Below, piece after piece: positions 1,635 through 59,736 of a DNA stretch of 64,000 bases. Source of the DNA: Chloropicon primus. Taxonomy: Eukaryota. The translations under genes were made by a program, and so were the position numbers. Position 1 is the stretch's first letter. Each line of letters begins with the position of its first letter. The DNA lies in the NCBI GenBank assembly GCA_023205875.1, contig CP060754.1, positions 1,302,001 through 1,366,000 on the forward strand, written 5' to 3'. The notes beneath the pieces are model-generated. The model was not told where the DNA came from and did no database searches. It saw only the letters and a program-made list of their open reading frames with translations.

Positions 1635-3818
1635 ATGAAGGACGGAGGACGTCAGAAGATCGTGTCGCCCCGCATCAGCGTCATGAAGGGGATGCAAGGG
1701 CAGCAAATGAAGGAGCTGGGGAGGCGCCAGTCCGCCTTCACGCTGGAATACAGGCAGCTGAGGACGGAAGCCGACGAGCACGTGTTCAAGACTGCCCTGA
1801 ACAAAGTAAAGAAGCTCTTCACCGGGAACAAGATTGGTGTGAACGACAAACACATTGTGGAGGAGGAGGACCTTCCTGCTCCGAGGCGCAACAGGCCCCG
1901 GTCGATGTCCGTCCAAGAGGACCTCCTTTCCGATAAGCTGAACCAGCCAACCTTTATGTTCAACCCCATTGGGCACACCAAGATGGCGTGGGACGCTTTT
2001 GTCATGTTCTTCGTGATTTGGAACTGCTGCTCTGTGCCCTACCACACTGCGCTTCAGCCGCGGTACAATTGCACGGAGGAGGAGCTCAAGAACGTGGAGT
2101 ACACGGACTGCTACCCGAAAACAAGTCAGAACTTTGACGTCCTTGTCTACATTGTATTCTGGCTGGACTTGTTCGTCCAGTCAAGGACGGGCTACGTGAA
2201 CGATCAGCAGCATATAGTGCTGAATTTCAAGCAAGCGTTTCGCCACTACCTGTGCGGCTGGTTCCTGATCGATTTCGCGTCCGCCATACCTTTCGACTAC
2301 ATAGCGGCATCCAAATCGGAGACCGGCTTCATCGAGATCCGCTTGTTGCAGATGCTCAAGCTCTTCAAGGTGGCGCCGCTCACAAAGGGTCTGGACAAGA
2401 CCCCGCAGGCGAACATCTTCCGCCTTGTCAGAGTCATCCTCGGCCTGATGATGCTCGGGCACTGGATCGGTTGCATGTACTTCTACCTTGGAATGCACCA
2501 GCTCACGTACTACGAGAACGAGGGCTGCAACGACAACACGGGGTGCCCTTGGATCAAGCAATACAACATGACGACGGCAAACCTTTATACGCAGTACTCG
2601 TCTTCCCTCTACTGGGGGATGACCATGCTTACGTCCGTGGAGTTCGGATACGTGTCGCCCCACACGAACGTCGAAAAGTTCTTCGCATGGTTTTGCCAGC
2701 TCCTGGGAGCCATTATCACTGCCATCATCTTCGGAGAGGTCGTCACGGCAGTCCAGGACTTTGAGGGGTCCAACTCCAGGTACAGGAACGTGATGGGTCG
2801 GACCAACCAGTTTCTCAAGTTTTATAACTTGCCCAAAGATTTGGCGAAGAGGGTGAGAAACAACATGGAGTACGGCTGGACCCTGCACAGTGGTATGGAC
2901 CAGCACGAGCTTCTCCAAGTCCTTCCGGATTCTTTGAGGACGGAGGTGCTCATGCACGTGCAAAGGAACGTGATACAGACGTGCACCATGTTCAAAGAGT
3001 GCGACAAGGCTTTCATCAAGGCGATGTGCCTGAATCTGGAGCCTAACGCCTACTTGCCATACGAGGTGGTCTATGAGGAGGGGGATGCAACGCGGGACGT
3101 TTACTTTGTTTCCAGGGGCAGGTTTAAGGTGGTCACGGGAACAGGACGAGCGCTGAGTGTGCTGAGCGAGGGCGATTATTTCGGCGAGCTCTCGTACTTT
3201 GACTACACGAGAAGAAGTGCAAGTGTTGTGGCGATCACATACGGGGAGGTCTACATCATCACCTGTACGAAACTTGACGAAATTCTTGACTCCTTCCCTG
3301 AGTACGTTTCCGTGCTGAGGAGAGAAGCAGCTCAGCACGCCAGGGTGTACGACAAGGGAACATTCTACACTTCACCGGGAGTCCGCCGCAAGTCGGCGCT
3401 GAACCAGCAGCCTGCCCCCGGCGGCGGCACCGTCAAGGAAGACCCCGTGGAGGTGAAGACAAAGTCAATCACCCCGTGGCTGGAAACCCCACAATCCAGG
3501 TCTCCTCTCGGTGGGATCACCGAGGACGAGGAGATGACCGAAGAGGAACTTTCTCTTACCCCAACTGTACCTGTCACGGAAGACGACTACAGCGACGATG
3601 CCCAGAAGGACCTTCCTGGCTCGATATCCAGTCCACCCAAGAGCCCCCAAAAGAAGCAGCTCACGGACATAGAGATCCAGTACAAGACGGCGACCATGTA
3701 TTCTAGCCAACTAAAAAAGATGTATGAGCAGGCTCTCCACCAGGAGAAAATTTTGGCAGCGAACATACAAAACGTGAGGCAAAAGGAGCAGGAGAGGATG
3801 AGGGAGGAAGACATTTAG
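1635..3818 (+). CDS. Cyclic-nucleotide-binding-domain cation channel (EAG/ERG/HCN/CNG superfamily)
   Basis: WDAFVMFFVIWN (S1), WFLIDFASAIPFD (S3), GHWIGCMYF (S5), YSSSLYW...TSVEFGYVSP (pore), C-linker LPDSLRTEV, CNBD GDYFGE...RRSASVVA; an upstream exon is possible. Confidence 0.9.
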   Translation: MKDGGRQKIVSPRISVMKGMQGQQMKELGRRQSAFTLEYRQLRTEADEHVFKTALNKVKKLFTGNKIGVNDKHIVEEEDLPAPRRNRPRSMSVQEDLLSDKLNQPTFMFNPIGHTKMAWDAFVMFFVIWNCCSVPYHTALQPRYNCTEEELKNVEYTDCYPKTSQNFDVLVYIVFWLDLFVQSRTGYVNDQQHIVLNFKQAFRHYLCGWFLIDFASAIPFDYIAASKSETGFIEIRLLQMLKLFKVAPLTKGLDKTPQANIFRLVRVILGLMMLGHWIGCMYFYLGMHQLTYYENEGCNDNTGCPWIKQYNMTTANLYTQYSSSLYWGMTMLTSVEFGYVSPHTNVEKFFAWFCQLLGAIITAIIFGEVVTAVQDFEGSNSRYRNVMGRTNQFLKFYNLPKDLAKRVRNNMEYGWTLHSGMDQHELLQVLPDSLRTEVLMHVQRNVIQTCTMFKECDKAFIKAMCLNLEPNAYLPYEVVYEEGDATRDVYFVSRGRFKVVTGTGRALSVLSEGDYFGELSYFDYTRRSASVVAITYGEVYIITCTKLDEILDSFPEYVSVLRREAAQHARVYDKGTFYTSPGVRRKSALNQQPAPGGGTVKEDPVEVKTKSITPWLETPQSRSPLGGITEDEEMTEEELSLTPTVPVTEDDYSDDAQKDLPGSISSPPKSPQKKQLTDIEIQYKTATMYSSQLKKMYEQALHQEKILAANIQNVRQKEQERMREEDI

Positions 3819-3909
3819 ATGAGCAAGGTTCACTGAGAATTTTATGAAACTTTTGTTAAAAAAAAACTTTCAAAAATAGAGAAAACAGCCTAACCCCCAA
3901 GGCTCGCCC

Positions 3910-4520
3910 CTACCGCGTCCTGTTCTTCGATACCTTCATCCTCTTCTTGCTTCCCTTCCTCGCTTGGGCCTCTGGAGCTTGCTCCTCGGCCTCCACGCCC
4001 CTGTTGCTCGCCTGAGAGAACAAGTAGTCCTTGATCGCAAGGGCTATGAGATAGGAAACGTACAGCGGGATCTGAAATCGATGGCAGTGCGCGGATGTCA
4101 GTACAAGGAAAGGGCGACGGGCTCTTGTTCGGAGGGACTCACCAGACCAAAGATCGCGATTCCCCACTTCATGGACAGCACCGTGAAGAAGTTGCATCCT
4201 CCGATCAGAAATATCAGGTCCTGCAAGTTCTCGATCCACCACGCAGGAGCACGGGTTCCAGTCCTCAGATTCACGGGCAGGAGGGACGTCCCGTTGCCGG
4301 CCACCGTCCCGAGAAACGACAGAGAGAACCATGCCAACAGATTGATGATCGAGAGGAACACCCATCCTTTGGGGGTGTGCATTTCCATAGGTTTCGCCGT
4401 TCGAGTGACTGCAACCGTGCCCACGAAGTGAGCGAACTCGGAGGACACAATCACCTTCCGGAGCAAGGCAAGCCTCGCCCCGTTCTCCTTCGCGAGCTTC
4501 TTCGCAGAACCACCAGCCAT
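3910..4520 (-). CDS. TMEM208: TMEM208/SND2 (DUF788) ER membrane protein; exons 4520-4143 and 4071-3910
   Basis: N-terminus MAGGSAKKLAKEN..L..LR, WIENLQDLIF, then IPLY and a basic C-terminal tail; a 71-nt GTGAGT...TTTCAG intron (4142-4072) joins two ORFs in frame. Confidence 0.75.
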
Positions 4521-38536: not shown

Positions 38537-38799
38537 ACAATAAAACCACAAAGCCGGGGGTGGACACTCCTCCATTGTCAATCCAAGACCTTCCCCCGAT
38601 GACATGACATGTCTCTCCCCCCCCCTCTCTCTCTCTCCCAGACTGAGGAGATCATTTGTCCTCCCCCTCGAGCTTATCCCCCGGCCGGGCCGGGTAAAAG
38701 TGGGGCGGACCCCTGTCGGAGAGTGGGGCCGAAAGGTGCGGGCGGAGGGAACCAATGGCAGGACGCGGTGGAGGACATCTCGGCGACATGGGGGGGACA

Positions 38800-40461
38800 A
38801 TGTCCTGCCGTGCGAAGATATCCATCGCCGTGGTGGAGTTCGACCTTACCGTGGGTCAGGTCTGCCGTTGTCTTGTGCCCGAGGACGCTCTGGACGACAA
38901 GGAGAAGAAGGACCTCGCGTACCACGCGTTTCCGGACTCGAAGAGCGTGGAGCTTACTCTGAGCTCTGGGAACAACTCCATTCACGACACGCTCTTTCAC
39001 TTTCGGATAAAGAACCGCAGGGAGGCAGGGGAATGGCGCTACGCTTACGCTTTCTGCAGGCAGAGGCACGACCCGAGCTTGCCCAGGGGAGGGGACCAGA
39101 TAAGCGTGGTGGTGGTGTCGAACACGCCAATGGCGACGACCCTGATGCAGATCACCAAATTCGCGGGAGAGGTTTACTTCGCCAAGGGCCAGGAGGCTCT
39201 GGCACAAGTGGTTGACTCCGTGGACGCCTGGGGCCGGGACGAGGAGGAGGGAGGGGTGGTGGAATGCGAGCTGGAGGTCCCCGGGGAGGGGGAGGGGGAG
39301 GGCGAGGAGAACGGCAACGGCAGGCAGGCCAGCGCGGCTTGGAAGCACATGAGTAGCAGCAGGGGCGGGAAGCAGCTCACGGTGAGGGCGGACGAGTTCG
39401 TGGCGCCGATCATCTTTCCGGAGAGGAGGGCTTCCACCCTGGACGCAAAGGAGGGGCAGGAGGAGAGCCAGACCGACGCGCAGACGAGAATGAGCTTCAG
39501 CAAGGTCTGTACGTACTCCTGCCTGTCTGGGGTCGTGAAGCACTTGTGGCGGATATGGGAGGCCATGCTTCTCGCGGAGCCCTTTGTGATATTCGGAAGC
39601 AACCCAGAGATCGTTTCTTCCTCGGTCTCCGCGTGCATGGATCTCATCTTCCCCCTGCCCTACAGCGCGGACTATAGGCCGTACTTCACGATTCACGACA
39701 GCGAGTTCAACGAGATCCAGAACCCGGAGAACTGCGGTGCGGAGGGAAACCCCACTTTGATTGGGGTGACCAACACGTACTTTCTCAAGGCCTATAGCAG
39801 TTGGCCGAACATTTTGTCCGTGGGGGGCGGGGACGCCGCGGGGGGGCTCGCGTACAATTCCCCCATGTCCTCCCCGAGGTCCCCCAGGCGAGGGAGCCTG
39901 AAGTCCTGGTTCTCCTTCCGGTCCGAGGACAGGAGCAACCTCATCAACGTAGTCGACTCGTACACCCAGGAGTTGTACGCGATGGGCCCAGGCCTGGTGA
40001 AAGAGAGCTACAAGATCCTGGGGTCCCTTGACCTCACCCCGGACGATGCCAGCGAGATGCAGTGGGTCACCTCCGCCACCATCAACACGAAGATACTCAA
40101 GAAACACTTTCAGGAGCTCACGGAGACGTTCCTCGCCCAGATCGATCCTTACGCGAAGGGCTTGTACGACGTCGAAGGGGGGAACGAGGAGATCCTGACG
40201 TGCTTGTCGACTCAAGCGTCATTCCCCCCGGTCCTCACGCAGAGCATGGACAGGACGAAGCTCTTGCAATTGTACGAAAAGGTACGGTGTTATGACTCGC
40301 TTGACGCGTTCGAGGACGTCGAGCCTCTCACGCAGACAAATACACTGACGACTACATCGATCGATCGACTCCTTTCTTGGTTTGTGTGTGTGTTTGTGTG
40401 CCCTTTCCAGTTTCTGAATTCGCCCAACTGCGATCCCTGGTTCAAGAGCCGCTCATTGTAA
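38800..40461 (+). CDS. DENND6/FAM116-like DENN-domain Rab GEF; probable in-frame intron 40282-40410
   Basis: VEFDL.VGQ, AFPDS, FHFRI, FCRQ..D..L.RG..Q.SVVV, LWRIWE.MLL.EP, DYRPYFTIHDS.F, IGVTN.YF. Confidence 0.88.
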   Translation: MSCRAKISIAVVEFDLTVGQVCRCLVPEDALDDKEKKDLAYHAFPDSKSVELTLSSGNNSIHDTLFHFRIKNRREAGEWRYAYAFCRQRHDPSLPRGGDQISVVVVSNTPMATTLMQITKFAGEVYFAKGQEALAQVVDSVDAWGRDEEEGGVVECELEVPGEGEGEGEENGNGRQASAAWKHMSSSRGGKQLTVRADEFVAPIIFPERRASTLDAKEGQEESQTDAQTRMSFSKVCTYSCLSGVVKHLWRIWEAMLLAEPFVIFGSNPEIVSSSVSACMDLIFPLPYSADYRPYFTIHDSEFNEIQNPENCGAEGNPTLIGVTNTYFLKAYSSWPNILSVGGGDAAGGLAYNSPMSSPRSPRRGSLKSWFSFRSEDRSNLINVVDSYTQELYAMGPGLVKESYKILGSLDLTPDDASEMQWVTSATINTKILKKHFQELTETFLAQIDPYAKGLYDVEGGNEEILTCLSTQASFPPVLTQSMDRTKLLQLYEKVRCYDSLDAFEDVEPLTQTNTLTTTSIDRLLSWFVCVFVCPFQFLNSPNCDPWFKSRSL

Positions 40462-40780: not shown

Positions 40781-43700
40781 ATGGACCCGACGTTCCCTTC
40801 CTCCCTGGGCGAGGCCAAGCCCGCGGGTTTGCTGTCGACAAAGTTCGGTGAGCTTGGGCTCGATGCGTCGACGGCGGCGACGTTTTCCACGATACGCGTC
40901 GGCGTTTGCACCATGGACAAGAAGGCCAAGTCCAAACCCATGATCGCCATCTTGACGAGGTTGAACCTCTTCGCTGACTTTGACATCTTGACGTTCGGGG
41001 ACGACCTGATCCTGGACAAGCCGATCGAGCAGTGGCCGCAGGTGGACTGCCTGGTGTCGTTCTACTCGAGCGGGTTTCCCCTGGAGAAGGCCGAGAAGTA
41101 TGCAGAGATGATGAAGGAGAAGGACCCAAAGTTCATGTGTCTGAACGACCTCAAGCTCCAGCACGTGCTTCACGACAGGAGGAGCGTGTACCGGACCCTG
41201 GCGGACGAGCTCATCCCGGTGACCAAGTACATCCAGGTGACGAGGACGCCCCGCGTGGTCAAGCCCGCCACGGAGGACAGCGAGGAGGAAGTCGAGTGGG
41301 ATGATCCAGAAGGCTTCGTTGAGACGGAGGACTCCATCACGATGAACGGGATGACGATCACCAAGCCATTCGTCGAGAAGCCTATCCACGGGGAGGACCA
41401 CAACGTTTGGATCTATTACCCCGCGGACACCCTCAACGGAGGCGTGAAGAAACTTTTCAGAAAGAAGGGGAACAAGAGCAGCGAGTTTTACCCGGAACAT
41501 CCTGGCACGGTGAGGAGGAACGGCTCGTTTCTTTACGAGAGGTGAGTAGCCCGATCTTCTTCGATCTCGTTCTCGACGCTTGCTCTCATTTTTTTTGGCT
41601 GCGCACTGACTCCAAAGACTTCACGCGGCGTGTGTAGGTTCATGCAGACTGGCGGGACCGATGTCAAGGTGTACACGGTGGGCCCGCACTATGCGCACGC
41701 CGAGGCAAGGAAGTCCCCGGTCGTGGATGGTTTCGTGGAGAGGTTCCCGGACGGGAAGGAGATAAGGTACCCTGTTCTGCTGACCTTGGCCGAAAAAGAG
41801 ATCGCGAGGAAGGTGAACCTGGCCTTTGGCCAGTTCGTCTGCGGTTTCGACCTCTTGAGGAGCGAGGGCAAGTCTTATGTCTGCGATGTGAACGGGTGGT
41901 CTTTTGTGAAGAACTCGGAAAAGTACTACGCGGATGCCGCGGATATCATGAGGCAGCACATCCTCCACCACCTCTCACCACACAAAACGGCTTCGGGAAG
42001 GGACATCGCTGTGGACACCTCCAACCTCCTGGGGTTGGAAAGCCCGGGGGCGTCACCGGCGGGGGCAAGTTCCGGGTCGAGAAAACTTGATCGGACGGGG
42101 TCGATATCGATCCCTATCATGGGCAGCAGCAAGATGAGTGCCCCGACCGTGTCTGCAAAGAGCGATGATGTTCACGGGTCGCCCAATTATTTTTCTGTGA
42201 TGGACAACGGCAGCCTGCCTAGCTTCATGCTCAAAGAGGGGAGCTACGAGGACATAACCAAGGCGGCGCAATCATGGCACAGGACGAGGCATGAGCTCAG
42301 AGCCATTATTGCTGTGATACGGCACGGGGATAGGACGCCAAAGCAGAAGATGAAAGTGAAAGTCACGCAGAAGCCGCTTTTGGATCTCATGTCCAAGTTT
42401 GGGGGGGGCTACTTCAATGGTAAGCTCAAGCAAGCGAAGCTGAAGAAGCCCCATGAGCTCCAGGACGTCTTGGACACCATCAGGCAGACTCTCAACGACC
42501 TTGAGGAGACCTGCAGCTACAAGATGTATGACCTGATGTCGCAAGTGGAGGGCAATTCGGACGATGACGAGGAGAGAGAGTTTCTGCACAAGATGAGGCT
42601 GGCGAAACACATTTTGGAGAGAGGGGGGAAGTTCTCTGGAATCAACAGGAAGGTCCAGATGAAACCCCTCGAGGTGAAGATAAACGAGGAGAAAGGGCAC
42701 GTGGAGGTGGTGGAGGCCCTGATGATAATTAAGCACGGAGGCGTGCTCACTGACTGTGGAAAGAAGCAATCTATAGAGCTCGGGGCCAAGTTCAGGAAGC
42801 AGATGTACCCCCAGGGCAAGGGGGGAGAAGGGGACGGGCTGTTGAGACTGCACTCTACGTACAGGCACGACTTGAAGATTTACAGCTCAGACGAGGGCAG
42901 AGTCCAAGTCAGCGCAGCTGCTTTTACCAAAGGCCTCTTGGACCTTGAGGGCGACTCCCTCGTTCCAATCATGGCGAGTCTGGTGAACAAGGAGCAGCAG
43001 ATCCTCGACGCGTTTGGGAAGGGCGTGGATGAGGCCCTGCAGGAAGTCAAGATCAAGCTGCAGTGTGCCATTACAGGTGGCTTGAACAAGCTCATTCTGC
43101 CGAAGTTCGCTTCTCAGCCGACCAACACCACCGTGACGCTGTCCCAGTCTCCCATGAAGGGCAAGAAGGTCGTGGTGGACGTCGGGGAGACCCCCAAAGT
43201 CGAGGGGATACCAGAGAATTCGATTGAGATTCTCCAGGAGATGAACTCATGTATCAGGACGCTTTGCGACCACATGCTCGAACGCCTTGGCCATAAGGAG
43301 GAGATCGAGGACCACGAAGACTTTATGATGGAGACCCAGGCTATGCTGGACTACGAGCGCTGGAAGGCGCACCTCCTCAGCTTTTGCAAGAGGGGGAAGT
43401 ACAACATCAGTGAAATCTCGGACATCTACGATTCGTGCAAGCACGACTTGATCAGCGAGAAGTTCAAGGACACGGACGAGGACTTTCTATTGATCAAGAA
43501 GACGTACTGTCTGGCGAAGACGATGGCCGCCATTGTGGTTCCCAACGAGTATGGGATGACGGGGCAAGAGAAGTTGAACATTGGTCACAGGATCTGCTCG
43601 GAGCTCCTGAAGAAGCTTCACAGGGACTTTTCCGCGATGCGGCAGCAGTCAAAGCTTGACGTCCAAGAGTTCCTGGACCAGGAGGAGAGGGAGAGGGAGG

Positions 43701-44101
43701 CTTCTGAGGAGGACGATGAGGAGGGAGGTGGAGGGGGGACCCACAGGCTCGCGGCCGAGTTCGCAGAGGGGGTGAAAACGCCCCTCCGCCACGTAAGATC
43801 AAGGTTTTACCACACCTCGGAGTCCCACATCCATGCCCTTCACAACGTGCTGGCGATGGAGGGAATCTTCTCGGCGGTGAAGGGGGTTGAGTTTGACTAC
43901 CTCAGCTCCATCGTGTTCCGGGTTTTCGAGAACCCGGAGATGGAGGAGAAGGACGACGCCAGGTGGACTGTGGACATCCTCTTCTCCCCGGGGTGCGTTG
44001 GCGAACCCTCCGATGGGTGCGCCAGTGCTGTGGACCTCGTCAAGTTGTCCACGGTCACTCTGAAGGACCTTGAGAGCATCATCAACCTCAAACCGTCGTA
44101 A
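40781..44101 (+). CDS. VIP1: Inositol pyrophosphate synthase VIP1/PPIP5K; exons 40781-41541 and 41638-44101
   Basis: VGVCTM.KK..SKPM, FYS.GFPL.KA, KPFVEKP, DVKVYTV, HAEARKSP, CDVNGWSFVK, RHGDRTPKQK, LHSTYRHDLKIYSSDEGRVQ; GTGAGT...TAG intron. Confidence 0.97.
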
Positions 44102-44605: not shown

Positions 44606-47600
44606 ATGGCTGCGGCAATGGACGCGACCATGGATGACGTCGTGGTGACGGAGGAGGAGGAAGAGGTCCTGCGGGAGAAGGCGCGGAAATGGTCGAAGCA
44701 CGCGTCGAAGCGGTTCGGGAACAAGAAGAGGCACGGGTACGTGGAAAGCAACACGAACATGCTTCCCGCCGAGGTGTGCAGGAAGATAGTGAGGGATCAC
44801 GGGGACATGAGCTCGAGGAAGTTTCGTCACGATCGTCGGGTGTACCTCGGAGCTCTCAAGTTCCTTCCTCACGGGGTCTACAAGCTCTTGGAGAACGTGC
44901 CGATGCCGTGGGAGCAGGTGCGGATGGTTCCGGTGCTCTACCACGTCACCGGGGCGATATCGTTCGTGAACGAGACTCCGAAGGTCATCGAACCGATCTT
45001 CGTGGCCCAGTGGGCGAGCATATGGCTCATGCAAAGGAGGGAGAAGAGGGACAGGAGGCACTTCAAGAGGATAAGGCTGCCGTGCTTCGACGACGAGGAG
45101 CCGATATTGGATTACGCGGACAACCTGCTTGACGTGGAGCCACTGGACGCGATCGAGCTGGAGCTCGACGAGGAGGAGGACGAGAGCATTATCGAGTGGT
45201 TTTACGACCACAAGCCCCTCATCGACGACCCAAGGTTCGTGAACGGCACGTCCTACAAGAAGTGGAAGCTGCCGTTGCCGGTGATGAGCAACCTATACCG
45301 GATCGCCTCCCAGTTGCTGTCCGATATCGTGGACCAGAACTACTTCTACCTCTTCGACAAGGATTCCTTCATCACGGCAAAGTCTCTGAATATGTGCGTC
45401 CCGGGGGGACCAAAGTATGAGCCCCTGTTTCGTGACATGGACGCCCGGGACGAGGACTGGAACGAGTTCAACGATATCAACAAGCTGATCATCCGTCAGC
45501 CTCTTAGGACGGAGTACAAGATCGCCTTCCCCTTCCTGTACAACAACAGGCCCAGGAGTGTCAGGCTGGGAGCGTACCACGAGCCCATGTGCATGTACAT
45601 CAAGCAGGAAGACCCAGACCTGCCCGCATACCACTACGACCCGCTTATCCACCCCATAGCTGCGTACAGATCGTCCGCAAGGGCGAGCAGGGTTGGGGGG
45701 AGCGAAGGGGGAGAGGGGGGGAAGAGGAGGAAAGTCGAGGAGAACGGGGTGAGCGGTCACCCACCCGCCTCCTGGGACGACGACAATGACGACAACGACT
45801 TTGAGGAGGACGACGAGTTCGTTCTTCCCCGAGGCGTGAACGCGTTTTGCAGCACGAGCAAGCTCGAGACACCGAATACGAGGGATGCAATCGAGTTGTG
45901 GTGGGCCCCTCGGCCTTTCAACCAGCGCAGCGGCCGGACGAGACGTGCGATGGATGTCCCCTTGGTCAACACCTGGTTCAAGGAGCACTGCCCCAGGGAC
46001 AACCCCGTGAAAGTCAGGGTGAGTTACCAGAAGCTGCTCAAGTGCTACGTCTTGAATGCCTTGCACCACCGAAAGCCAAAGTCCATGAAGAGGAAAGACC
46101 TGATGAAGTCCCTCAAGGCGACCAAATTTTTTCAGCAGACGGAGCTGGATTGGGTGGAGGCAGGCTTGCAAGTGTGCAGGCAAGGGTACAACATGCTCAA
46201 CCTCCTCATCAATCGAAAGAACCTGAATTACCTTCACCTGGACTATAACTTCAACCTCAAGCCAGTGAAGACGTTGACGACGAAGGAGAGGAAGAAGAGC
46301 AGGTTTGGAAATGCCTTTCACCTTTGCAGGGAGATCCTGAGGCTCACCAAAATGATTGTGGATGCCCACGTCCAGTACAGGCTGGGGCATGTGGACGCCT
46401 ACCAGCTGGCGGACGGCCTCCAGTACACCTTTGCGCACGTGGGGCAACTCACGGGAATGTACAGGTACAAGTACAGGCTGATGCGCCAGATCAGGATGAC
46501 AAAGGACTTGAAGCACCTTATCTACTACCGCTTCAACACGGGAAGCGTTGGCAAGGGCCCTGGAGTGGGTTTCTGGGCCCCCATGTGGCGTGTTTGGCTC
46601 TTCTTCCTCAGGGGCATGATCCCCTTGCTGGAAAGGTGGCTAGGAAACCTGCTGGCCAGGCAGTTTGAGGGAAGGAGCAGCAAGGGCGTGGCGAAGACGG
46701 TGACGAAGCAGAGGATCGAGTCGCACTTTGATTTGGAACTAAGGGCTGCAGTGATGCACGATATTCTTGACATGATGCCTGAAGGGGTCAAGCAGAACAA
46801 AGCGAGGACGATACTCCAGCACCTTTCGGAGGCGTGGCGCTGCTGGAAAGCGAACATTCCTTGGAAGGTCCCAGGCTTGCCTGCACCAATAGAGAACATG
46901 ATTATCAGGTACGTCAAGTCCAAGGCGGATTGGTGGACTAACGTGGCCCACTACAACCGCGAGCGCATCAGGAGAGGCGCGACTGTGGACAAGACTGTCG
47001 TCAGGAAGAATCTCGGCCGCCTCACAAGGCTGTGGCTGAAGGCTGAGCAGGAGAGGCAGCACAACTATCTGAAGGATGGCCCTTACGTGAGCCCTGAAGA
47101 GGCCGTGGCAATCTGGACCACGGCGGTGCACTGGCTCGAGTCGCGGAAGTTCTCGCCGATCCCCTTTCCCCCTCTCTCGTACAAGCATGACACAAAGCTT
47201 TTGATTCTGGCCTTGGAGCGACTCAAGGAGTCTTACACCGTCTCCGTGAGGTTGAACCAGACGCAGAGGGAGGAACTTGGGCTGATTGAGCAGGCTTATG
47301 ACAACCCTCACGAGGCACTTTCACGGATCAAGAGGCACCTGCTCACCCAGAGGTCCTTCAAGGAGGTTGGAATAGAGTTCTTGGACTTGTACAGTCACCT
47401 TATTCCTGTGCATGATATTGAGCCCCTGGAGAAGATATCTGATGCTTACCTCGACCAGTATCTGTGGTACGAGGCAGACAAGCGGCAACTTTTCCCGAAC
47501 TGGATCAAGCCCAGCGACAATGAGCCTCCGCCGCTGCTCGTGTACAAGTGGTGCCAAGGCATCAACAACCTGACGGATGTCTGGGAGACGGCAAATGATG

Positions 47601-50600
47601 AATGTGTTGTGATGATGCAGACGAGGCTCGAGAAGCTCTTCGAGAAGATCGACCTCACGCTGCTCAACAGGCTGCTGAGGCTGATCGTTGATCACAACCT
47701 CGCCGATTACATGACGTCAAAGAACAACGTGGTGATCTCGTACAAGGACATGTCGCACACCAACTCGTACGGACTCCTTAGGGGCCTGCAATTCAGCTCG
47801 TTCATCACGCAGTACTATGGACTGATCGTGGACCTCCTACTCCTGGGTTTGACCAGGTCGAGCGAGATCGCTGGCCCAGCGAACCATCCAAACGATTTCC
47901 TCTGCTTCAAGAATGTCCAGGCAGAGACAAAGCATCCGATAAGGCTGTACTGCCGGTACATTGACAAGGTCTACATGCTCTTTAAGTTTGAGGCGGACGA
48001 GACCAAGGATTTGATCCAGCGGTATCTCACGGAGCACCCTGACCCAAACAATGAAAACATTGTTGGCTATAACAATAAGAAGTGCTGGCCAAGGGATGCC
48101 AGAATGAGGCTGATGAAGCACGACGTGAACCTGGGGAGGGCTGTCTTCTGGGACATGAAGAACAGACTGCCAAGGAGCATGACAACTTTTGAGTGGGAGA
48201 ACAGCCTCGTCAGTGTGTATAGCAAGGACAACCCAAACGTCTTGTTCAGCATGGCTGGCTTTGAGGTCAGAATACTTCCCAGGTGCAGAATGTCTCAGGA
48301 AGGTTTTGCGCAGAGGGAAGGCGTCTGGAGCCTCACCAACGAGGTGACGAAGGAGAGGACGGCCCAGGCATTCCTGAGAGTGGACGATGAGGCGATGAAG
48401 GCGTTTGAGAACAGGATAAGACAGGTTCTCATGTCCTCTGGTGCAACGACCTTCACCAAGATTGCAAACAAGTGGAACACGGCTCTGATTGGATTGATGA
48501 CCTACTACAGGGAGGCCGTCATCCATACCCAAGAGCTCCTTGACCTGCTGGTGAAGTGCGAGAACAAGATCCAGACGAGAATCAAGATTGGCCTTAACTC
48601 AAAGATGCCTTCGAGGTTCCCTCCTGTTCTGTTCTACACGCCAAAGGAAATCGGTGGTCTTGGGATGCTCAGCATGGGCCACATCTTGATCCCTCAGTCG
48701 GATTTGAGGTATGCCGGACAGACTGACTTGGGAGTCACGCACTTCCGCGCGGGAATGACCCACGAAGAGGAGCACCTCATACCAAACCTGTACAGGTACA
48801 TCCAACCCTGGCTCAGCGAGTTCACGGACTCGCAAAGAGTGTGGGCAGAATACGCGCTGAAAAGGCAAGAAGCTATGTCGCAGAACAGGCGTTTGACCTT
48901 GGAGGATTTGGAGGATAGCTGGGACAGGGGAATACCGAGGATCAATACCTTGTTCCAGAAGGACAGGCACACCCTGGCCTATGATAAGGGCTGGAGAATA
49001 AGGACGGACTTCAAGCAGTACCAGATCACGAGGCAGAATCCGTTCTGGTGGACCCACCAAAGGCACGACGGCAAGCTGTGGAACCTGAACAACTACAGAA
49101 CGGACGTGATCCAGGCCCTTGGAGGCGTGGAGGGTATCTTGGAGCACACCCTCTTCAAGGGGACCTACTTTCCCACGTGGGAGGGTCTGTTTTGGGAGAA
49201 GGCCTGCTTTGCCACAGGCACCAAGCTGCTCCTTGCCGACGGCTCAACCATTACGGCTGGGGAGGTGAGGAGAGGGCATCAGCTCATGGGTGATGATGGC
49301 ACGCCCCGCCTGGTGCAGGAGGTGGTCACGGGCCTGAGCAAGCTTTACGAGATCACCTTTGGGTATTCTAAGGAGGAGCCTCTTGTCGTGACAGGCAACC
49401 ACATCTTGTGCTTCAAGACCACGAGCCGTTTCTGCATGTGCTGGTCAGATGAGCGGGGTGCTGTTGTGGTTTACTACTTTGATGGGAATTCATGCCGCAG
49501 TAAGCAGTTCCGTGTCCATGCTGACTGGGATTCATTCTACTACAGCAAGGAGGAAGCCCATGCTGCTGCTCAGAAGTACCTGAAGGAGGTGCATCGCTCA
49601 GGTCGTGGCCTCACTGTGATTGACAACAATGCTTCTGGCCTCACCGGAATCGAGGAGCGCAGCGGTTCGATTCGTGTCCTTGTTCCAGGCGAGAAGAACA
49701 AGCGCCGCGTGTTCTCCTGGAGTGCAAAGGGGCGCAAGTCTGCTGACACTGTGATGGTAAAGAACCGCGAGGAGGCGTTCCAGCAAGCACACTCCATGAA
49801 TCAAGATTTTCGCAACAAGGGCCAGTGCATGGAGGGCAAGGAAAACCTGAAGGAGATGAATCTGTCCTGGTGCAAAGCTGATGGGGCGTATCGCGTAGCC
49901 CACAAGGTGGATGGCAAGACCAAGACCATGAGCTTCAACGTGACCAATCGCATCTACTACGAAAATCGCGCCAGTGCTGAGCGGGCTGCTGAGGCTTACA
50001 TGAGTGGGCTTGGCAAAGCAAACATGGGCAAGGGGGAGGTGTGTGAAACGACAGTGGAGGAGTACCTTGAGCTGCCTGTTTCTGTGCAGCGCATGCTGCT
50101 GTTCTACCGTGCGCCAGCCCTCAAGTTCAACGAATCGCTCAGTGTGGAGCAGATGCCTGTGAACCCCTACTTTCTCGGACTTTGGCTTGGAGATGGCACA
50201 TCAACAACAATCAGCAACAATCATGAGGAGCAGATTATTTCCTTCCTGCAACAGCATGCTGATGGGCTTGGGATGAAGCTCACTAACTCTGATGGCAGCA
50301 TTGCATACCGCACGGTGGGCGGCTTCGGCAACACCAATGCCCTCTTGGATGCTCTTCGGAGGCTTGGTGTGGTCAGGGATGTGGGACAGGCAGGATCTCA
50401 GAAGGATTGCAAGCACATTCCACGGATTTATCTGGAGGCGAGTGAAGAGGTGCGGCTGATGCTACTTGCTGGCCTCATTGATTCTGACGGCAGCTACCAT
50501 GATTCAAGCCTGCACTTTGCCTTTACACAGGCTGAGCGATGGCACAAGACGCTGTTTGAGAATGTTCTCTTCCTTGCTCGTAGCCTGGGCTTCAATGCCA

Positions 50601-53383
50601 ACTATGCACGCCACTGGAGAGAGGGTGGGTTTTGTGAGTCGCTGCAGGCTGAGATTCCTGCAGGCTGGTGCCTCAGCATGAAGGTGACGGGCGACATTGA
50701 CAGGGTACCTACCCTGCTCCCACGCAAGCAGGCTCGCAAACGTTCAGATCGTGACTGGAGTGTGCACTCGGTGATGCAGGTGAAGCAAAGGCCACAGCCA
50801 GAGCTGTACGCGGGTTTCCTTGTGGATGGCAACAAGCGTTTCCTGAGGAGCGACTTTCTTGTGGTGCACAACAGTGGCTTTGAGGAGAGCATGAAATTCA
50901 AGAAGCTGACCAGAGCCCAGCGTTCGGGTTTGAACCAAATCCCCAACAGGCGTTTCACCTTGTGGTGGTCCCCGACAATCAACAGGGCGAACGTGTACGT
51001 GGGTTTCCAGGTTCAGCTGGACTTGACAGGCATCTTCATGCACGGGAAGATTCCGACGTTGAAGATCTCTCTGATCCAGATCTTCAGGGCTCACTTGTGG
51101 CAGAAGATCCACGAGTCCATCGTCATGGACCTCTGCCAGGTCCTCGATAAGGAGCTTGACGCCCTGGAAATTGAGACGGTGCAGAAGGAGACGATCCACC
51201 CGAGGAAGAGCTACAAGATGAACTCTTCCTGTGCCGACATCCTTCTCTTCGCGGCATTCAAGTGGCAGATTTCCAAGCCCTCTTTGATGACGGAGGGCAA
51301 GGACGTGTTTGACCAGAAGCCGAGCAACAAGTACTGGCTTGACGTCCAGCTGAGGTGGGGTGATTTCGACTCTCACGATATTGAGAGATACACCAGGGCC
51401 AAGTTCCTTGACTATACCACGGACAACATGTCGATCTACCCGAGCCCCACGGGCTGCATGATTGGGCTCGACTTGGCTTACAATCTCCACGCTGGGTTTG
51501 GCAACTTCTTCCCGGGGATGAAGCCCCTGTTGTCCCAGGCAATGGGAAAGATCATGAAGTCCAACCCTGCTCTGTACGTGCTGAGGGAGAGGGTCAGAAA
51601 GGGGCTGCAGCTTTACAGCTCCGAGCCAACTGAGCCTTACCTGAACAGCCAGAACTACGGGGAGCTGTTTTCCAACCAGCTCATTTGGTTTGTGGATGAC
51701 ACGAACGTTTACCGCGTCACGATACACAAGACCTTTGAAGGTAACCTCACGACCAAGCCGATCAACGGTGCCATCTTCATCTTCAACCCCAGGACCGGGC
51801 AGCTGTTCTTGAAGATCATTCATACGTCGGTGTGGGCAGGCCAGAAACGCCTGGGCCAGCTCGCAAAATGGAAGACAGCAGAGGAGGTGGCTGCCCTGAT
51901 TCGGTCGCTCCCTATCGAAGAGCAACCGAAGAGGATCATCTGCAGCAGGAAGGGAATGCTCGACCCGTTGGAGGTCCACTGCCTGGATTTTCCTAACATC
52001 GTGATCACTGGAACGGAGCTCCAACTGCCGTTCCAAGCTGCCCTGAAGGTGGAGAAGTTCGGAGACTTGATTCTCAAGGCCACGGAGCCCCAAATGGTCC
52101 TTTTCAACATCTACGACGACTGGCTGAAATCGATCTCGTCCTACACGGCCTTCTCGAGGCTGATATTGATCCTCAGGTCCTTGCACGTGAATGTGGACAA
52201 GACGAAGATGCTCCTGAGACCAGACAAGAGCATCGTTTCGGAGGCCCACCACGTTTGGCCCTCGCTGACGGACGAGCAGTGGATCAAGGTCGAGGTCGCG
52301 CTGAAGGACCTCATCCTGGCAGACTTTGCGAAGAAGAACAACGTGAATGTCGGGGCCCTGACCCAGACGGAGATCAGGGACATCATCCTTGGTGCAGACA
52401 TTGCGCCACCTTCCATGCAGCGCCAGCAGATTGCGGACATCGAGAAGCAGGCCAAGGAATCCTTGCACCAGAGCGCGGTGACCACCAAGACTGTGAACAA
52501 GCACGGAGAGGAGATGGTGGTGACGACGACCTCTGCGTATGAGCAGCAGGTCTTCAGCAGCAGGACGGACTGGCGGGTGAGGGCCATCTCGTGCTCGAAC
52601 CTTCACTTGCGTGTGAACCACATTTACGTCAATTCGGAGGACCTGCACTTCGACACGGGGTACACGTACATCCTGCCGAAAAACGTTTTGAAGAAGTTCA
52701 TCATGATCTCGGACCTCAGGACTCAGGTCATGGGCTTCATGTACGGTGTCAGCCCGCCGGATCACTCTCAGGTCAAGGAGATCAGGTGCATCGTGATGCC
52801 GCCGCAGTGGGGCAACCACCAGCAGGTGAATGTGCCGCAGCAGCTTCCGGACCACGACTACCTGGACGACCTCGAGCCCCTGGGGTGGCTCCACACCCAG
52901 CCCAACGAGACGGGCGGTCTCAGCGAAAAGGACATCCAGATGCACAGTGGGATCCTGGAGAGGCAGGAGTCTTGGGACGGGGAGAGGTGCATCGTGGTCA
53001 CCTGCAGCTTCACCCCTGGCAGCGTGAGCCTCACAGCCTATAAGCTTACCCCGCAGGGCTACGAGTGGGGAAGGGGCCAGAACAAGGACGGAGGAAGAGG
53101 AGGTGGTGGCAGTGGGGGAGAGCCCCAGCCCGGATCCTTCGAGAAGGTCCAGATGCTCTTGAGCGATCGGTTCATGGGTTACTTCATGGTCCCCGAGATC
53201 GGGTCCTGGAACTACAACTTCATGGGCGTCAAGGCTTCGCCAAACATGTCCTGGAACATCAAGCTGGACAACCCGAAGGAGTTCTACAATCCGCTGCACC
53301 GTCCTACGCACTTCTTGGAGTTCTCCGGCTCGGGCGCAGAAGGAAAGCTCTCCCAGGCCGACGTGGAGGACCACCTGGCCTAA
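44606..53383 (+). CDS. PRP8: Pre-mRNA splicing factor PRP8 precursor (2925 aa including a 556-aa intein; about 2369 aa mature)
   Basis: Continuous, highly conserved PRP8 sequence ([23 protein letters not shown]-like and RNaseH-like regions, [13 protein letters not shown], Jab1/[13 protein letters not shown]...HRP.HFL.F). Confidence 0.99.
49205..50872 (+). mobile_element. PRP8-a intein with LAGLIDADG homing endonuclease
   Basis: In-frame insertion between FWEKA and SGFEES; block A CFATGT, block B VTGNHIL, blocks [13 protein letters not shown] and [39 protein letters not shown] followed by +1 Ser. Confidence 0.97.
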
Positions 53384-53557: not shown

Positions 53558-55497
53558 ACGTACGCGGCGGCGGTCTCGTGTCGTCGGTGGCGATGAGGAG
53601 GAGAAAAGGCCATGATGGCACAGAGTGATATTTGTATCTACAGCTTGCTTATATCTAGTCTCCTACGGCTTGTTTTGCTCTCACGGTAATCTCCCTCCTC
53701 ACTCTTCCTGCTTGACCTTGACAATGGAAGGGACCGCCTTGCTCGGTCTTCTCTTCGACGAACGACGAGCATTGCAGAGCCCGACCTCTTCGAGGTACTC
53801 TCTCTTCACAATGCATTGTTCCTTGTCGCTCAGCTTAAGAGATGCGTCCGCAAAGATGATCCTCAACGCCTCGTTGTAGTCCGCGATCTCTCTCTTCTTC
53901 TCCGGGGACTTGCTGTCATAACACTGGGCCTCCTGCACGGCTTCGGCGTACTCCTCCTCCGTCATCAGGCCGGACTCGAGAGCCTCTCTCAAATCCAAAG
54001 CATAGGGAGAAGGAGAACTCATCGTCTTCATGTTGTTGTTGTTGTTGGCGGCGTTGGAATTCTGCTCATTGAGGTTGTCGGCGGTTGATCGATTCAAGTA
54101 TTTCTTGGCAATGGCATAAGTTCCACGTGCAGTGCGAGCAACGCGGGGGCTGTGTCTACAAGCAGACCTGACACAGTGCAGCATTCTCTCCAGATCAGTA
54201 GAAACAGAACCATCCATACGCCTGAACACATGTAGCTTCTTGGCCTGGATCCGTGCATGGATCTCTTTGACGCGCAAGCTCCTTCCCGCATCTTGAAGAA
54301 CGCGATAGACGGCATCCCGAAGCGGTGAGGTGCTGACAGCATCTTGAGTATTGGACCCATTCAAGGGTTCCTTGGCAATGGCAGAAGTTCCACGTGCAGT
54401 GCGAACAAAGCGGGGGCTCTTTGAACAAGCAGTCCCGACACATATCCGCATACTCTCCGGATCAGTAGAAACAGAACCATTCAGACGCCTAAACACATAT
54501 AGCTTCTTCGCCTGGATCCGGCCAAGGATCTCTTTGGCGCGCAAGCTTCCTCCCGCATCTTGAAGAACACGATAGATGGCATCCCGAAGCGTTGAGGTGC
54601 TGACAGCACCTTGAGTATTGGACCCATTCAAGTATTCCTTGGCAATGGCATATCTTCCCAAGGCAGTGCGAACGAAGAAGGGGCTCGCTATGCAAGCCCC
54701 ATTGACAGCTTTCCGCATTCTCTTCGGATCAGTATGAACAGAGCCATCTCTCCGCCTGAACACATACAACTTCTTGGCCTGGATCCGTGCATGGATCTCT
54801 TGGGCGCACAAGCTCCCTCCCGCAGCATCTTGAAGAACGAGATAGACGGCAGTCACAAGAGTTCTCTTTCCATTGCGAGTCCTGAAAGGACGTGCGTTGC
54901 CTCCCATCATAGTCACCTCTGCTGGCTCAGGTTGGCAGGACGAATCCGCACCACCACTATCCTCCTCACTGTCGCTCTCCTCTTCGATGATCGTCGTAGA
55001 GCCCGTCACGAAGCTCGCCAAACACTCTCCGTCCACGTCCATGTCCATGGCACCTGGGGACAACCCTCCCTTGTCGTCATCACCACCGGCGACGGCCCTC
55101 GCCGCCGCGATCATCGCCGCCGTCGACCTGGTGCGTGTCCAGCGTCTCTGTCTCGTGGGACGCCTCATGATAAAACAAAGCACCGCAAAACACTGCACAG
55201 CTCGACGAAGACTTGCCTTCCTCTTCCTCTTCACGAACCGAGCCAACAACTCGCAAAACAAACTTCGAGGCAGCCTTCTCTAACGCCTGTCGTCTCAAAG
55301 GGAGGACCACTCCTCTTTTTCGTGAAAACCTTCAGCTGAGGTATCAATCGAAAGCCCTTGAGACGCCCTTGCGTTCTTTCCACACCTCCTCCCTTTCCTC
55401 GTCCCCGTCCGTGCACAAAGTCCTCGACAAGCACCTACCCTCTCCCCGTCATGCGCCGACAAACCCCCGCGAGGCGTTATCCGTTCTCTCTCTCTCC
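53558..55497 (-). repeat. Duplicated cassette, copy B (inverted relative to 29514-31807)
   Basis: Reverse complement matches copy A at both ends and throughout; shorter by one 267-bp repeat and one ~85-bp acidic repeat. Confidence 0.92.
53699..55168 (-). CDS. Paralog with three tandem HARE-HTH-like repeats
   Basis: N- and C-terminal parts are nearly identical to 29843-31663; three 89-aa units. Confidence 0.75.
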   Translation of the reverse strand: MRRPTRQRRWTRTRSTAAMIAAARAVAGGDDDKGGLSPGAMDMDVDGECLASFVTGSTTIIEEESDSEEDSGGADSSCQPEPAEVTMMGGNARPFRTRNGKRTLVTAVYLVLQDAAGGSLCAQEIHARIQAKKLYVFRRRDGSVHTDPKRMRKAVNGACIASPFFVRTALGRYAIAKEYLNGSNTQGAVSTSTLRDAIYRVLQDAGGSLRAKEILGRIQAKKLYVFRRLNGSVSTDPESMRICVGTACSKSPRFVRTARGTSAIAKEPLNGSNTQDAVSTSPLRDAVYRVLQDAGRSLRVKEIHARIQAKKLHVFRRMDGSVSTDLERMLHCVRSACRHSPRVARTARGTYAIAKKYLNRSTADNLNEQNSNAANNNNNMKTMSSPSPYALDLREALESGLMTEEEYAEAVQEAQCYDSKSPEKKREIADYNEALRIIFADASLKLSDKEQCIVKREYLEEVGLCNARRSSKRRPSKAVPSIVKVKQEE

Positions 55498-55520
55498 AAA
55501 TTCCATTTCTCAGGGGACGA

Positions 55521-56894
55521 ATGGCGATGGCGATGGCGCGGGGAGGTGCTTTGGTGGCCGCACTTTGGGCGGTGGTGCTTGCCCTGTCGCGGCCGGCGGA
55601 GGCGACGGAGACGAATGACAACTACAATTTAAGGGGAGGTGCGAGGCAGGGCGGCGTCACGACGACGGGTCTTGATAGGATGTGTTCCTCTCCTTCCTTT
55701 GCCAAAGTTGTGACCGGTGGCAAGCCGACGTGCATCCTCGCCCACGCTGCGTCCGTCCTTCCTGACTTGACGCATGCCGTGGATGCTTTGGCTCAGACGA
55801 GCTCCGGCGTGAAGTTGACATCGGTGTTGGCGCCGGAGCACGGGTTCAGGGGCGCTCAGCAAGCGGGGCATGGAGGGAAGAACTCCACCGTGGACCCTCG
55901 GACGGGCCTGCAGGTGTACAGCATCTACCTTAAGGGCTACGAGCAGATCTTGTCCCTGATGCAGAAGGATGGATCTCAGGTGGTGCTTGTTGACCTCCAG
56001 GATTGTGGTGCTCGGTTCTATACTTACATATGGAGCCTGTATGATGTGCTGGTGGCCGCGGCGGGGTCCAAGGTGGGAGGCCAGGGCGCCGGTTACCCGG
56101 TGAAGGTTGTGGTTCTGGACCGGCCAAACCCCTTGGGGGGCGAGAGGATCGGCGGCCCTGTCCTCGATGCGGACTTCAGCAGCGGCGTGGGGAAGAGGCC
56201 GCTGAGTATGCAGCACGGGATGACGATAGGGGAGTTGGCGAACTTGTTTAACGAGGAGTACGTGGGGCTGGAGGACTTCAGCAAGGGGAACAAGGCCGAC
56301 CTGCAAGTGGTGACGATGGAGAACTGGAGAAGGGAGCTCTCGTTTACGGATACCGGGCTGCCCTACGTCCCCCCGAGCCCGAACCTGCCCACCCCCACGA
56401 GCGTTTACCTTTACGTGGGACTTGGACTCATCGAGGGGGTGAACATTAGCGAGGGGAGGGGGACTGCCCTGCCTTTCCAGCTGATAGGGGCGCCCTACAT
56501 GGGCTGGGAGTACGCGGACGCGCTGAGGAAGCTGCAAATGGACGGGACCGAGGTAAGGGAAGCTTATTTTGTTCCGGTGATGAGCAAGCACGCGAACCAG
56601 ACTTGCGGCGGGGTGGAGGTGTCCTTGCCCCCCAAGGGTGGCCCGCAGGGGGAGCTGGATGCGATCAGGGTCGGCATCCAAGTCATTAAGCTGGCCCACG
56701 ATATGTACAAGGACCAAGGGGGGTTCGATTGGGTGAAGAGTGGCTCGAGATACTGGATCGACCTCCTCACCGGGAACGAGCTGGTGAGAACCGGCATCGA
56801 GAGCGGTCTTCAGGTGGACCAGATCGTCGCACAGTGGCAGCACGAGCTCGAGTGGTTCAAAATCTTGGCCCAGAAGTACCTCCTCTATCAATGA
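55521..56894 (+). CDS. namZ: Exo-beta-N-acetylmuramidase NamZ/YbbC (DUF1343, GH171)-like, with signal peptide
   Basis: APEHGFRG, DLQD.GARFYTYI, LDRPNPLGG, HGMTIGELA, PPSPNLPT, SEGRGT.LPF..IGAP, IDLL.G; hydrophobic N-terminus ALVAALWAVVLALSRPAEA. Confidence 0.92.
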   Translation: MAMAMARGGALVAALWAVVLALSRPAEATETNDNYNLRGGARQGGVTTTGLDRMCSSPSFAKVVTGGKPTCILAHAASVLPDLTHAVDALAQTSSGVKLTSVLAPEHGFRGAQQAGHGGKNSTVDPRTGLQVYSIYLKGYEQILSLMQKDGSQVVLVDLQDCGARFYTYIWSLYDVLVAAAGSKVGGQGAGYPVKVVVLDRPNPLGGERIGGPVLDADFSSGVGKRPLSMQHGMTIGELANLFNEEYVGLEDFSKGNKADLQVVTMENWRRELSFTDTGLPYVPPSPNLPTPTSVYLYVGLGLIEGVNISEGRGTALPFQLIGAPYMGWEYADALRKLQMDGTEVREAYFVPVMSKHANQTCGGVEVSLPPKGGPQGELDAIRVGIQVIKLAHDMYKDQGGFDWVKSGSRYWIDLLTGNELVRTGIESGLQVDQIVAQWQHELEWFKILAQKYLLYQ

Positions 56895-58061: not shown

Positions 58062-59681
58062 TTAGCACGCCTGTGCGGAGTACACGCTCCACGAGTACAC
58101 AGAAAAACCAAAGGCCAGAGCAGCCCCAAAGGTGGCGGACACGTAGATCCAGCCCTTGAAGTTCCTGGGGTATTCGAACGAGTATTTGTGGACTTCGGCG
58201 ACGAAGGTGGACACCGTGCTGAGAGACCCATTGAACCCGGTCTCAAATGCGCCCATTCCAACGGCGAGCCAGTAAAGGTTGGTCTCCGAGATGCAGTAGT
58301 GCCGCTCGAACGCCGAGACAATGGAGTTGAGGAGCGTGCCCGTGAGGTTGATGGAAAACGTTCCCAGCGGAAACCAGGCCATCTGGCCCTTCAACACTCC
58401 CGACTTGTTGTTGTTGAAGTTCATTGACATCTTCCACCGGGCAAAGCACCCGAACGGTGCGAAGAGCAAGGACATCCAGCACTTCCTGCGCTTGTAACTG
58501 CCATCGTACCTCAAGAGGCAGGCCCACAAGGTCGTCAGGGCCAGGAAAGCCACAGTGAAGACGACATTGCTGAAGGCGATCAGCCTCCTCTGCCCCTTGC
58601 TCGCTTCGCTTTTGGGGAGGCTCTTCTTGCTCCCCGTTCCTTCCCTTGGACCTCCTCTCGCGGCGCTGCTTGGCGCGGGTGGGAAATCGCCGCACTCCCG
58701 AAGCGACAAGTTCTCGCTCGTCAGGACGAGAGGCCCCTGCACCTCGTACTTTTGCGAGACGACATCGGCGGCCGGCACGCTCGGATCCGGGTTTCTCCTC
58801 ACGAGCCACACCTCGTCCCCCTTCCCCCCCTCGAGGACGTGAATGGCCGGCGTCGTCCCGCTCTCCCCCCCGCCGTCTTCCGGAAGCGCGGGCGGCGGCC
58901 CTCTCGGCCGGTGGTTGATCGTGGACAGGATGGCGTTCTTCCTGATGTTGTGCCACAGCCTGACCCTCTCCCTCTTGTCGCGGTGACTCACTCCGACGAC
59001 CCACATGTGCATCCTAATCGCGGCGTGCTCCCCCAGGATGAAGCACAGGAGCGAGGAGGAGACCTCGAGGAGGAGGACGATGGCGACGGCCCCGACCCTG
59101 CAAGAACAAGGAGAAGAAGAAGAAGAAAAAGGCGGAGGTCGAGTCAGTCGAGGTTCTGCCAGGGGAAGCCAGAAGCCCACGCACCTTCCCCTCGTCAGGA
59201 TCGACACCATCTGAAAGGCCCAGCTCGCGAAGGTTGTCAGGGAGCCGCAAAACCCCACCCTGAGTCCGAGGAGGAGGTCCTCGTGGTGCTGAATCAGGTG
59301 GTCCTCGGGCAGGAAGCTCACGGGCATTTTGGGCTGCTCGAACCACACGAGGTGGGCCTTGTTCTCCGTGAGGAACCCCATGAAGAAGGACCCCACCATG
59401 TTCGCCACGAGGATCCCCAGCACGCTCCTCACCTCGTCCTCGGCGCTGCTGGAGCAGCTGGGACCGTCGGCGAGCACGTCGTGCCCGTAGCAGGTGGAGG
59501 TGATGCCCTCGTCGATCCAGAAGCGGACGAGCACGCCGAGCTGGGCCCACAAAGCGAGGTGGACGAGGGTGAAGAGGGCGCCTCCTCCTCCCGGGAGGAG
59601 GAGGGCAGGGGGGGAGGAAGAGGGCCACGACGCGGGCACGCCCCCCCCTTCGCGGGGACTCCTTCCCATCTCCACCTCCAT
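58062..59681 (-). CDS. Fluoride exporter FEX (tandem CrcB/Fluc domains); probable in-frame intron 59184-59098
   Basis: ANMVGSFFMG, GLRVGFCGSLTTFASW; second domain APFGCFARW, PLGTF.IN..G, GFNGSLSTVSTF.AE. Confidence 0.92.
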   Translation of the reverse strand: MEVEMGRSPREGGGVPASWPSSSPPALLLPGGGGALFTLVHLALWAQLGVLVRFWIDEGITSTCYGHDVLADGPSCSSSAEDEVRSVLGILVANMVGSFFMGFLTENKAHLVWFEQPKMPVSFLPEDHLIQHHEDLLLGLRVGFCGSLTTFASWAFQMVSILTRGRCVGFWLPLAEPRLTRPPPFSSSSSPCSCRVGAVAIVLLLEVSSSLLCFILGEHAAIRMHMWVVGVSHRDKRERVRLWHNIRKNAILSTINHRPRGPPPALPEDGGGESGTTPAIHVLEGGKGDEVWLVRRNPDPSVPAADVVSQKYEVQGPLVLTSENLSLRECGDFPPAPSSAARGGPREGTGSKKSLPKSEASKGQRRLIAFSNVVFTVAFLALTTLWACLLRYDGSYKRRKCWMSLLFAPFGCFARWKMSMNFNNNKSGVLKGQMAWFPLGTFSINLTGTLLNSIVSAFERHYCISETNLYWLAVGMGAFETGFNGSLSTVSTFVAEVHKYSFEYPRNFKGWIYVSATFGAALAFGFSVYSWSVYSAQAC

Positions 59682-59736
59682 CGCACTCGCGAGAAGCTCC
59701 CTTCCGTCGCCCTGCTACACCCGGTGCGAGAGAGAG

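Follow-up and report, generated by a model that had tools for sequence, protein, structure and literature searches.

Three tandem modules with a predicted AP2 fold lie directly after splicing block B of a LAGLIDADG intein in the PRP8 gene of Chloropicon primus, within the 64,000-nucleotide stretch analysed here (the window: contig CP060754.1 of assembly GCA_023205875.1, positions 1,302,001 to 1,366,000). The predicted fold and family-level profiles support assigning the array to the AP2/ApiAP2 domains, as the original prediction, made by a model from the letters alone, had proposed, and the array is probably an accessory DNA-binding arm with which the endonuclease would hold intein-free PRP8 better during homing. 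Inteins with accessory DNA-binding domains are known, whereas their AP2 identity, and tandem copies of them in PRP8 inteins, appear to be undescribed: a full-text literature search, with most subscription papers outside its reach, returned no description of AP2 domains in a LAGLIDADG intein, the main texts of PMC10710043, PMC3749507, PMC6805012, PMC8966425 and PMC5784728 do not contain the term 'AP2', and in PMC12220804 it denotes an HNH protein. In the accessible part of PMC10710043, C. primus inteins are named only in DNA polymerases.

Evidence for an array of AP2-like modules

The intein interrupts Prp8 in frame (junctions WEKA/C...HN/SGFE) and has the features of a Hom_end, VMA1-type element: Cys1, a TxxH block B (TGNH, residues 63-66), a terminal His-Asn, a +1 residue of the Ser/Cys/Thr set, and two catalytic LAGLIDADG motifs (GLWLGDG and AGLIDSDG, residues 322-331 and 420-429), which were aligned to PI-SceI and both contain the catalytic aspartate. 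Its WEKA/SGFE insertion point and membership of the site-a clade mark it as a PRP8 site-a allele, and its GC content at third codon positions is 0.65, lower than that of the exteins (0.78 and 0.82). A Pfam scan of the intein returned Hom_end_hint, Hom_end and a weak LAGLIDADG_3 match, with no AP2 and no HNH match; the nuclease is LAGLIDADG. Block B and endonuclease motif C are separated by ~253 amino acids (aa), ~207 of which (residues 70-276) form the array.

AlphaFold2, run on a 47-row alignment, predicts three strand-strand-strand-helix units here (mean pLDDT 90.6, pTM 0.71), which bears out the structural expectation of the original prediction; single-sequence fold prediction was uninformative (pLDDT 34). 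The module strings quoted at the outset are present at 49436-49579, 49646-49798 and 49862-49999, and the pattern ascribed to them, a K/R-x-F sheet end followed by an E-x-A-x-x-x-A helix, breaks down in module 3 (M3), where the sheet ends in M-S-F and the helix lacks the leading E. As expected of AP2/ApiAP2 domains, the modules combine a predicted three-stranded sheet and one following helix over 55-60 aa with profile-level homology to AP2 members, and their G/W/F/A core columns are conserved.

Sequence identity to module 1 (M1) is 16% for module 2 (M2) and 21% for M3. In profile-profile alignment (hhalign), M1 and M3 match at P 96%, a score reached by 0/40 column shuffles, M1 also matches single modules of non-PRP8 inteins at P 96%, and M2 matches M1 at P 90%, restricted to the 23-column helix. 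ApiAP2 chains account for six of the seven matches in a module-profile search of the PDB, 8/19 members of the module profile match PF00847, for M3 the ortholog P0003 matches it too (E 0.0016), and M1 reaches the ApiAP2 structure 3igm by phmmer at E 0.068. Against AP2 repeats, hhalign gave P 94% for M3, 8% for M1 and 12-37% for M2, each above 50/50 shuffles, in a test that is biased because its reference (P0231 and P0232) had itself been found by the insert-profile search. That search returned 51 matches including two true multi-AP2 proteins (the same P0231 and P0232), and is not clean support since four repeat proteins (P0220, P0221, P0228 and P0233; three of them cadherin-like by Pfam) scored equally or nearly so. 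In a weaker test, a profile of non-PRP8 modules gave the insert 8.6 bits, a score that the best of 1000 shuffles equalled. A word-based search that used the insert against longer proteins retrieved none of 456 candidates. Foldseek viral matches include HNH endonucleases and AP2/ERF proteins, and Atlas contains AP2-bearing clusters at 0.88-0.90 with low recognition, which serve as a lead only.

Distribution, loss and recent movement

The intein homolog set comprises 120 listed sequences, 98 of them non-PRP8 by the author's count, and an insert of 50-80 aa occurs at the same spot in 19/98 of the listed non-PRP8 homologs (several being near-duplicates), with Pif1, EF1A-like, AAA and MutS proteins as hosts. 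Such hosts are presumably typical of giant viruses; a viral origin of the single-module inteins gained no support, a search having found no locus, and among the 25 matches listed in a phage tblastn search only intein residues 267-556 were covered. The site-a set, 59 complete inteins (63 minus 4 near-duplicates), divides into 5 with three modules, 9 with ascomycete-type arrays, 6 with two modules, 8 with one and 31 with none, named carriers including Botryotinia, Meristemomyces, Rachicladosporium, Geranomyces, Entomortierella, Thamnidium and Durusdinium. The window lineage, ascomycetes and a chytrid all have the three modules in the same order; against distant homologs with three modules, identity is 29-47% in the modules versus 45-50% in the endonuclease. 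A more distant host (P0131; Prp8 85% identical) carries all three modules.

In a tree of insert-free cores (62 rows, quick search, midpoint root; 11 site-a and 16/25 non-PRP8 rows omitted as duplicates, odd rows or parsing failures), site a forms one clade (52 rows, SH-aLRT 100) that adjoins mostly single-module inteins. Array-bearing and array-less alleles interleave within this clade, and repeated loss from an array-bearing ancestor is the simplest reading. One module is likely ancestral, and tandem duplication at an early stage of the site-a lineage would have produced three.

Module-like units were also seen elsewhere. The metagenomic locus L001 (~2520-4140; likewise P0007 and P0132) has a second LAGLIDADG intein of 539 aa at Prp8 site VMDL/C, which is empty in the window; after its block B there is apparently a tandem pair of AP2-like modules, of which the first scores on a module profile that it helped to build. 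P0131 contains a further 551-aa intein (residues ~1304-1854), inserted at PPVVFY/TPKE, in which two stretches following block B look module-like by eye, both below 12 bits on the module profile. In P0216 an array of ascomycete-like form occurs at another Prp8 site, P0219 and P0226 are other inteins with two module-like units, and the 354-aa site-a inteins P0144 and P0155 (Geranomyces) retain modules 1 and 3 without an endonuclease, the P0155 Prp8 showing three intein ends.

Between the window and L001, synonymous divergence (dS) is 1.72 (300 codons) and 1.25 (87 codons) in the exteins and 0.05-0.20 in intein parts, and across four host Prp8 types that are 92-96% identical the intein cores lie within ~0.1 substitutions per site. 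Intein dS far below extein dS, together with near-identical cores across hosts, points to recent movement of the intein between host species; low intein dS between distant hosts is also an indirect indication that the window intein may be active in splicing and cleavage. Close relatives either lack the array and keep an endonuclease (P0132, P0133 and L001; 94% identical) or are mini-inteins (P0141, P0142). The array-less relatives show three different deletion junctions, with remnants of M1 and/or the M3 helix, which places the array in the recently spreading ancestor; as close alleles lost it by three different deletions, the array looks dispensable for splicing. Marine runs contain full, array-deleted and mini alleles, X12 having a contig that spans the whole array plus a mini joint, and X8 array pieces plus a 531-base skip. 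Removal of the array by a spliceosomal intron is unlikely, because the frame is open and contigs cross the array in X4 (guessed to be RNA) and X12 (an RNA library).

Proposed role, known parallels and alternatives

Under the proposed mechanism, the self-excised free intein would bind an empty PRP8 allele, the LAGLIDADG domain would read and cut the core of the site, and the AP2 sheets would contribute extra contacts on flanking DNA, much as the DNA-recognition region (DRR) of PI-SceI does from the same slot. Repair would then copy the intein into the cut allele, and after fixation the array, likely dispensable, would be deleted with or before the endonuclease. A role of the modules in target binding is plausible. 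Strict catalytic motifs occur in 11/14 full-array inteins versus 17/35 other endonuclease-bearing ones, a weak association (Fisher p 0.066, rows not independent). According to the accessible parts of two papers, the Botrytis cinerea intein, which bears a post-block-B insertion, homes at 100% (PMC3158057); in yeast it cleaves both native and human sites, in a construct that may or may not include the insert (PMC3159444).

The array region superposes on PI-SceI residues 82-179 and, like the PI-SceI DRR, sits right after block B within the Hint domain. This superposition suggests that the array may be an amplified form of a known accessory DNA-binding slot, with three units in the window intein versus one in PI-SceI, the VMA1 intein, which together with HO endonuclease is a close known parallel. 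The original prediction had set AP2 identity against alignment with the ordinary DNA-recognition linker of VMA1/PRP8 inteins; the superposition goes part of the way to such an alignment and leaves the AP2 reading in place. Doubtful but conceivable is the wider proposition that the DRR is itself a diverged AP2 domain, in which case the Hom_end family (VMA1, HO, PRP8 and virus-type) would be an old AP2-plus-LAGLIDADG fusion whose AP2 unit PRP8 inteins amplified to a two- or three-finger array, with a longer footprint and cross-species homing. The best-studied intein endonuclease may then carry an unrecognised AP2 domain, the orphan insertion described in 2006 in Aspergillus fumigatus and Botrytis inteins would gain a name, and inteins would join HNH endonucleases as a mobile reservoir of AP2 domains. 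PI-SceI is not in the Foldseek top 50, and the DRR is not called AP2-like in the available literature passages that cover it.

Among known systems, the fungal inteins AfuPRP8 and BciPRP8 share site and clade with the window intein and have a large insertion directly after block B, given by Butler 2006 as 203 aa in A. fumigatus and 33 aa longer (~236 aa) in B. cinerea, and as resembling no known protein (PMC1508164, in the part available). Since the post-block-B region is 277 aa in Botryotinia calthae versus 43 aa in the array-less B. sinoallii, a difference of 234, and Botryotinia M2 is homologous to window M2 (hhalign P 95%), the 2006 insertion is likely the same as the array, judged by Botryotinia length and middle-module homology, the two inteins named in 2006 being absent from the homologs found. 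The fungal inteins differ in that M1 and M3 look degenerate and a long spacer separates endonuclease motifs C and D. The architecture, originally taken to be undescribed for PRP8 inteins, appears to be new as regards AP2 identity, whereas the insert had been seen in 2006 without a fold; that region, then similar to nothing, would now receive a fold and a testable job.

With ApiAP2 domains (PF14_0633, 3igm; SIP2, 6sy0; Toxoplasma gondii AP2IX-6 and AP2VIIb-2; PF00847) the modules share the beta-beta-beta-alpha fold predicted here and a profile match, and their tandem copies recall SIP2, but they are nested in an intein and fall below Pfam's cut-off. HNH-AP2 homing endonucleases of phages and large DNA viruses likewise place an AP2 module beside a mobile nuclease; the window nuclease is instead LAGLIDADG, a type with its own DNA-reading saddle, and the modules lie inside the Hint domain. 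The array would link AP2 and LAGLIDADG inteins, two families of mobile DNA-binding parts not found joined in print. The archaeal inteins TliVMA, PI-PfuI and PI-TkoII also carry an additional domain, which binds DNA and modulates endonuclease action (PMC8966425), located between endonuclease and C-terminal Hint and in some cases helix-turn-helix (HTH)-like, unlike the AP2-like modules after block B. The terms 'chimeric' and 'redirects' in the original prediction are unsupported: site a is an ordinary insertion point, site-a inteins of the algal type, of chytrids and of ascomycetes share the array, and non-PRP8 Hom_end inteins carry a single copy in that slot.

Several observations count against an accessory arm or the AP2 assignment beneath it. 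The HMMER-type comparison suggested at the outset gave zero Pfam AP2 (PF00847) matches for the window insert and each of its three modules, and no intein module among those with bits shown reaches the Pfam cut-off of 33.3 bits (best 31.8). Structural Z scores are all below 8, within the tool's background range, the module profile finds no PI-SceI at E <= 10, and ApiAP2 folds can be non-DNA-binding scaffolds, as in a mitoribosome (PMC11742926). Beyond the degenerate look of ascomycete M1 and M3, 21/59 site-a inteins, including P0132, P0133 and L001, have both catalytic aspartates and no array. Compared with a wild full-array X12 allele, the insert has 15 codons with nonsynonymous and 7 with synonymous differences (427 and 116 sites), a dN/dS ratio of ~0.6 and hence weak constraint; the endonuclease (0.30) and splicing parts (0.08-0.10) are tighter in a different pair, window and L001, and counts are small. 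Finally, the endonuclease-less mini-inteins P0144, P0155 (Geranomyces) and P0207 keep two modules.

The catalytically intact array-less inteins, the ratio of the insert and the many independent array losses over the tree would also fit modules that are AP2-derived and now near-neutral baggage in an insertion-tolerant loop, with LAGLIDADG alone responsible for homing; Butler 2006 terms the region indel-tolerant and describes a Neosartorya fischeri endonuclease without the insert (PMC1508164, in the part available). This explanation is nevertheless unlikely, given that the three-module order persists from the window lineage to ascomycetes and a chytrid, that identity to distant homologs is 29-47% in the modules against 45-50% in the endonuclease, that core columns are conserved, and that the recently spreading ancestor had the array. 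Less probable again is an array that relaxes or shifts specificity, its sequence-tolerant affinity permitting cutting of synonymously diverged or new sites and hence species crossing. An archaeal accessory domain did render its intein more promiscuous (PMC8966425), the present intein crossed between hosts with saturated synonymous sites, and tandem modules occur in PRP8 inteins at other sites too; however, all three-module-array homologs with flanks in the set sit at site a (P0216 being a possible exception), there is no sign of a changed target, and the proposal overlaps with an accessory arm. A non-homing role, such as RNA or protein binding in the Prp8 precursor or after excision, is very improbable even with module-retaining minis and the mitoribosomal precedent, as the array is repeatedly deleted among close relatives and the same module occurs in inteins of unrelated hosts (MutS, Pif1, EF1A-like proteins), which ties it to the intein and not to Prp8.

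For the accessory DNA-binding arm, one lineage supplies a natural allele series (full, array-less and mini) differing by a few percent, so that a role of the accessory domain in homing is directly testable. A further point of interest is that a nuclear intein of a marine microbial eukaryote has apparently moved between species in recent times.

Feature coordinates and neighbouring genes

Table 1. Host gene, intein parts and inferred homing site, in window coordinates.
Feature	Position	Strand	Basis or remark
PRP8 host gene, single open frame including the intein	44606..53383	+	start codon inferred
Site-a intein, 556 aa, Cys1...His-Asn, Ser+1	49205..50872	+	Pfam Hom_end_hint E 3e-21, Hom_end E 1e-8
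N-terminal splicing (Hint) region, blocks A and B (TGNH)	49205..49414	+	matches Cryptococcus Prp8 intein and PI-SceI chains
AP2-like module 1 (M1), residues 76-128	49430..49588	+	AlphaFold2 model; hhalign; phmmer to 3igm
Predicted linker helix ahead of M2, running into conserved N-x-x-x-G-x-x-G-I start	49601..49633	+	AlphaFold2 model
AP2-like module 2 (M2), residues 144-206	49634..49822	+	best kept of the three modules in ascomycete inteins
AP2-like module 3 (M3), residues 218-268	49856..50008	+	AlphaFold2 model; hhalign to Pfam-AP2 repeats
Conserved post-array segment, retained in mini-inteins	50033..50110	+	also described in the available part of Butler 2006 (PMC1508164)
Two-motif LAGLIDADG endonuclease, bounds approximate	50156..50734	+	motifs 50168-50197 and 50462-50491; both aspartates present
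C-terminal splicing region, blocks F/G, start approximate	50762..50872	+	sequence motifs, chain matches
5' half of inferred homing site	49175..49204	+	inference
3' half of inferred homing site	50873..50902	+	inference

The open reading frame adjoining PRP8 (53699-55279, minus strand) encodes a protein in which three winged-helix-like repeats stand in tandem, with a Pfam match to HARE-HTH (E 2e-10) and an end resembling SHOCT. It is followed at 55362-56894 (plus strand) by a secreted-looking homolog of the exo-beta-N-acetylmuramidase NamZ (Pfam E 6e-63 and 5e-42), a peptidoglycan-recycling family that is unusual in a eukaryote. Three further plus-strand genes were labelled by eye and are presumably VIP1/PPIP5K-like (41546-44101), Fluc/CrcB-like (58062-59714) and DENN-domain-like (38698-40461).
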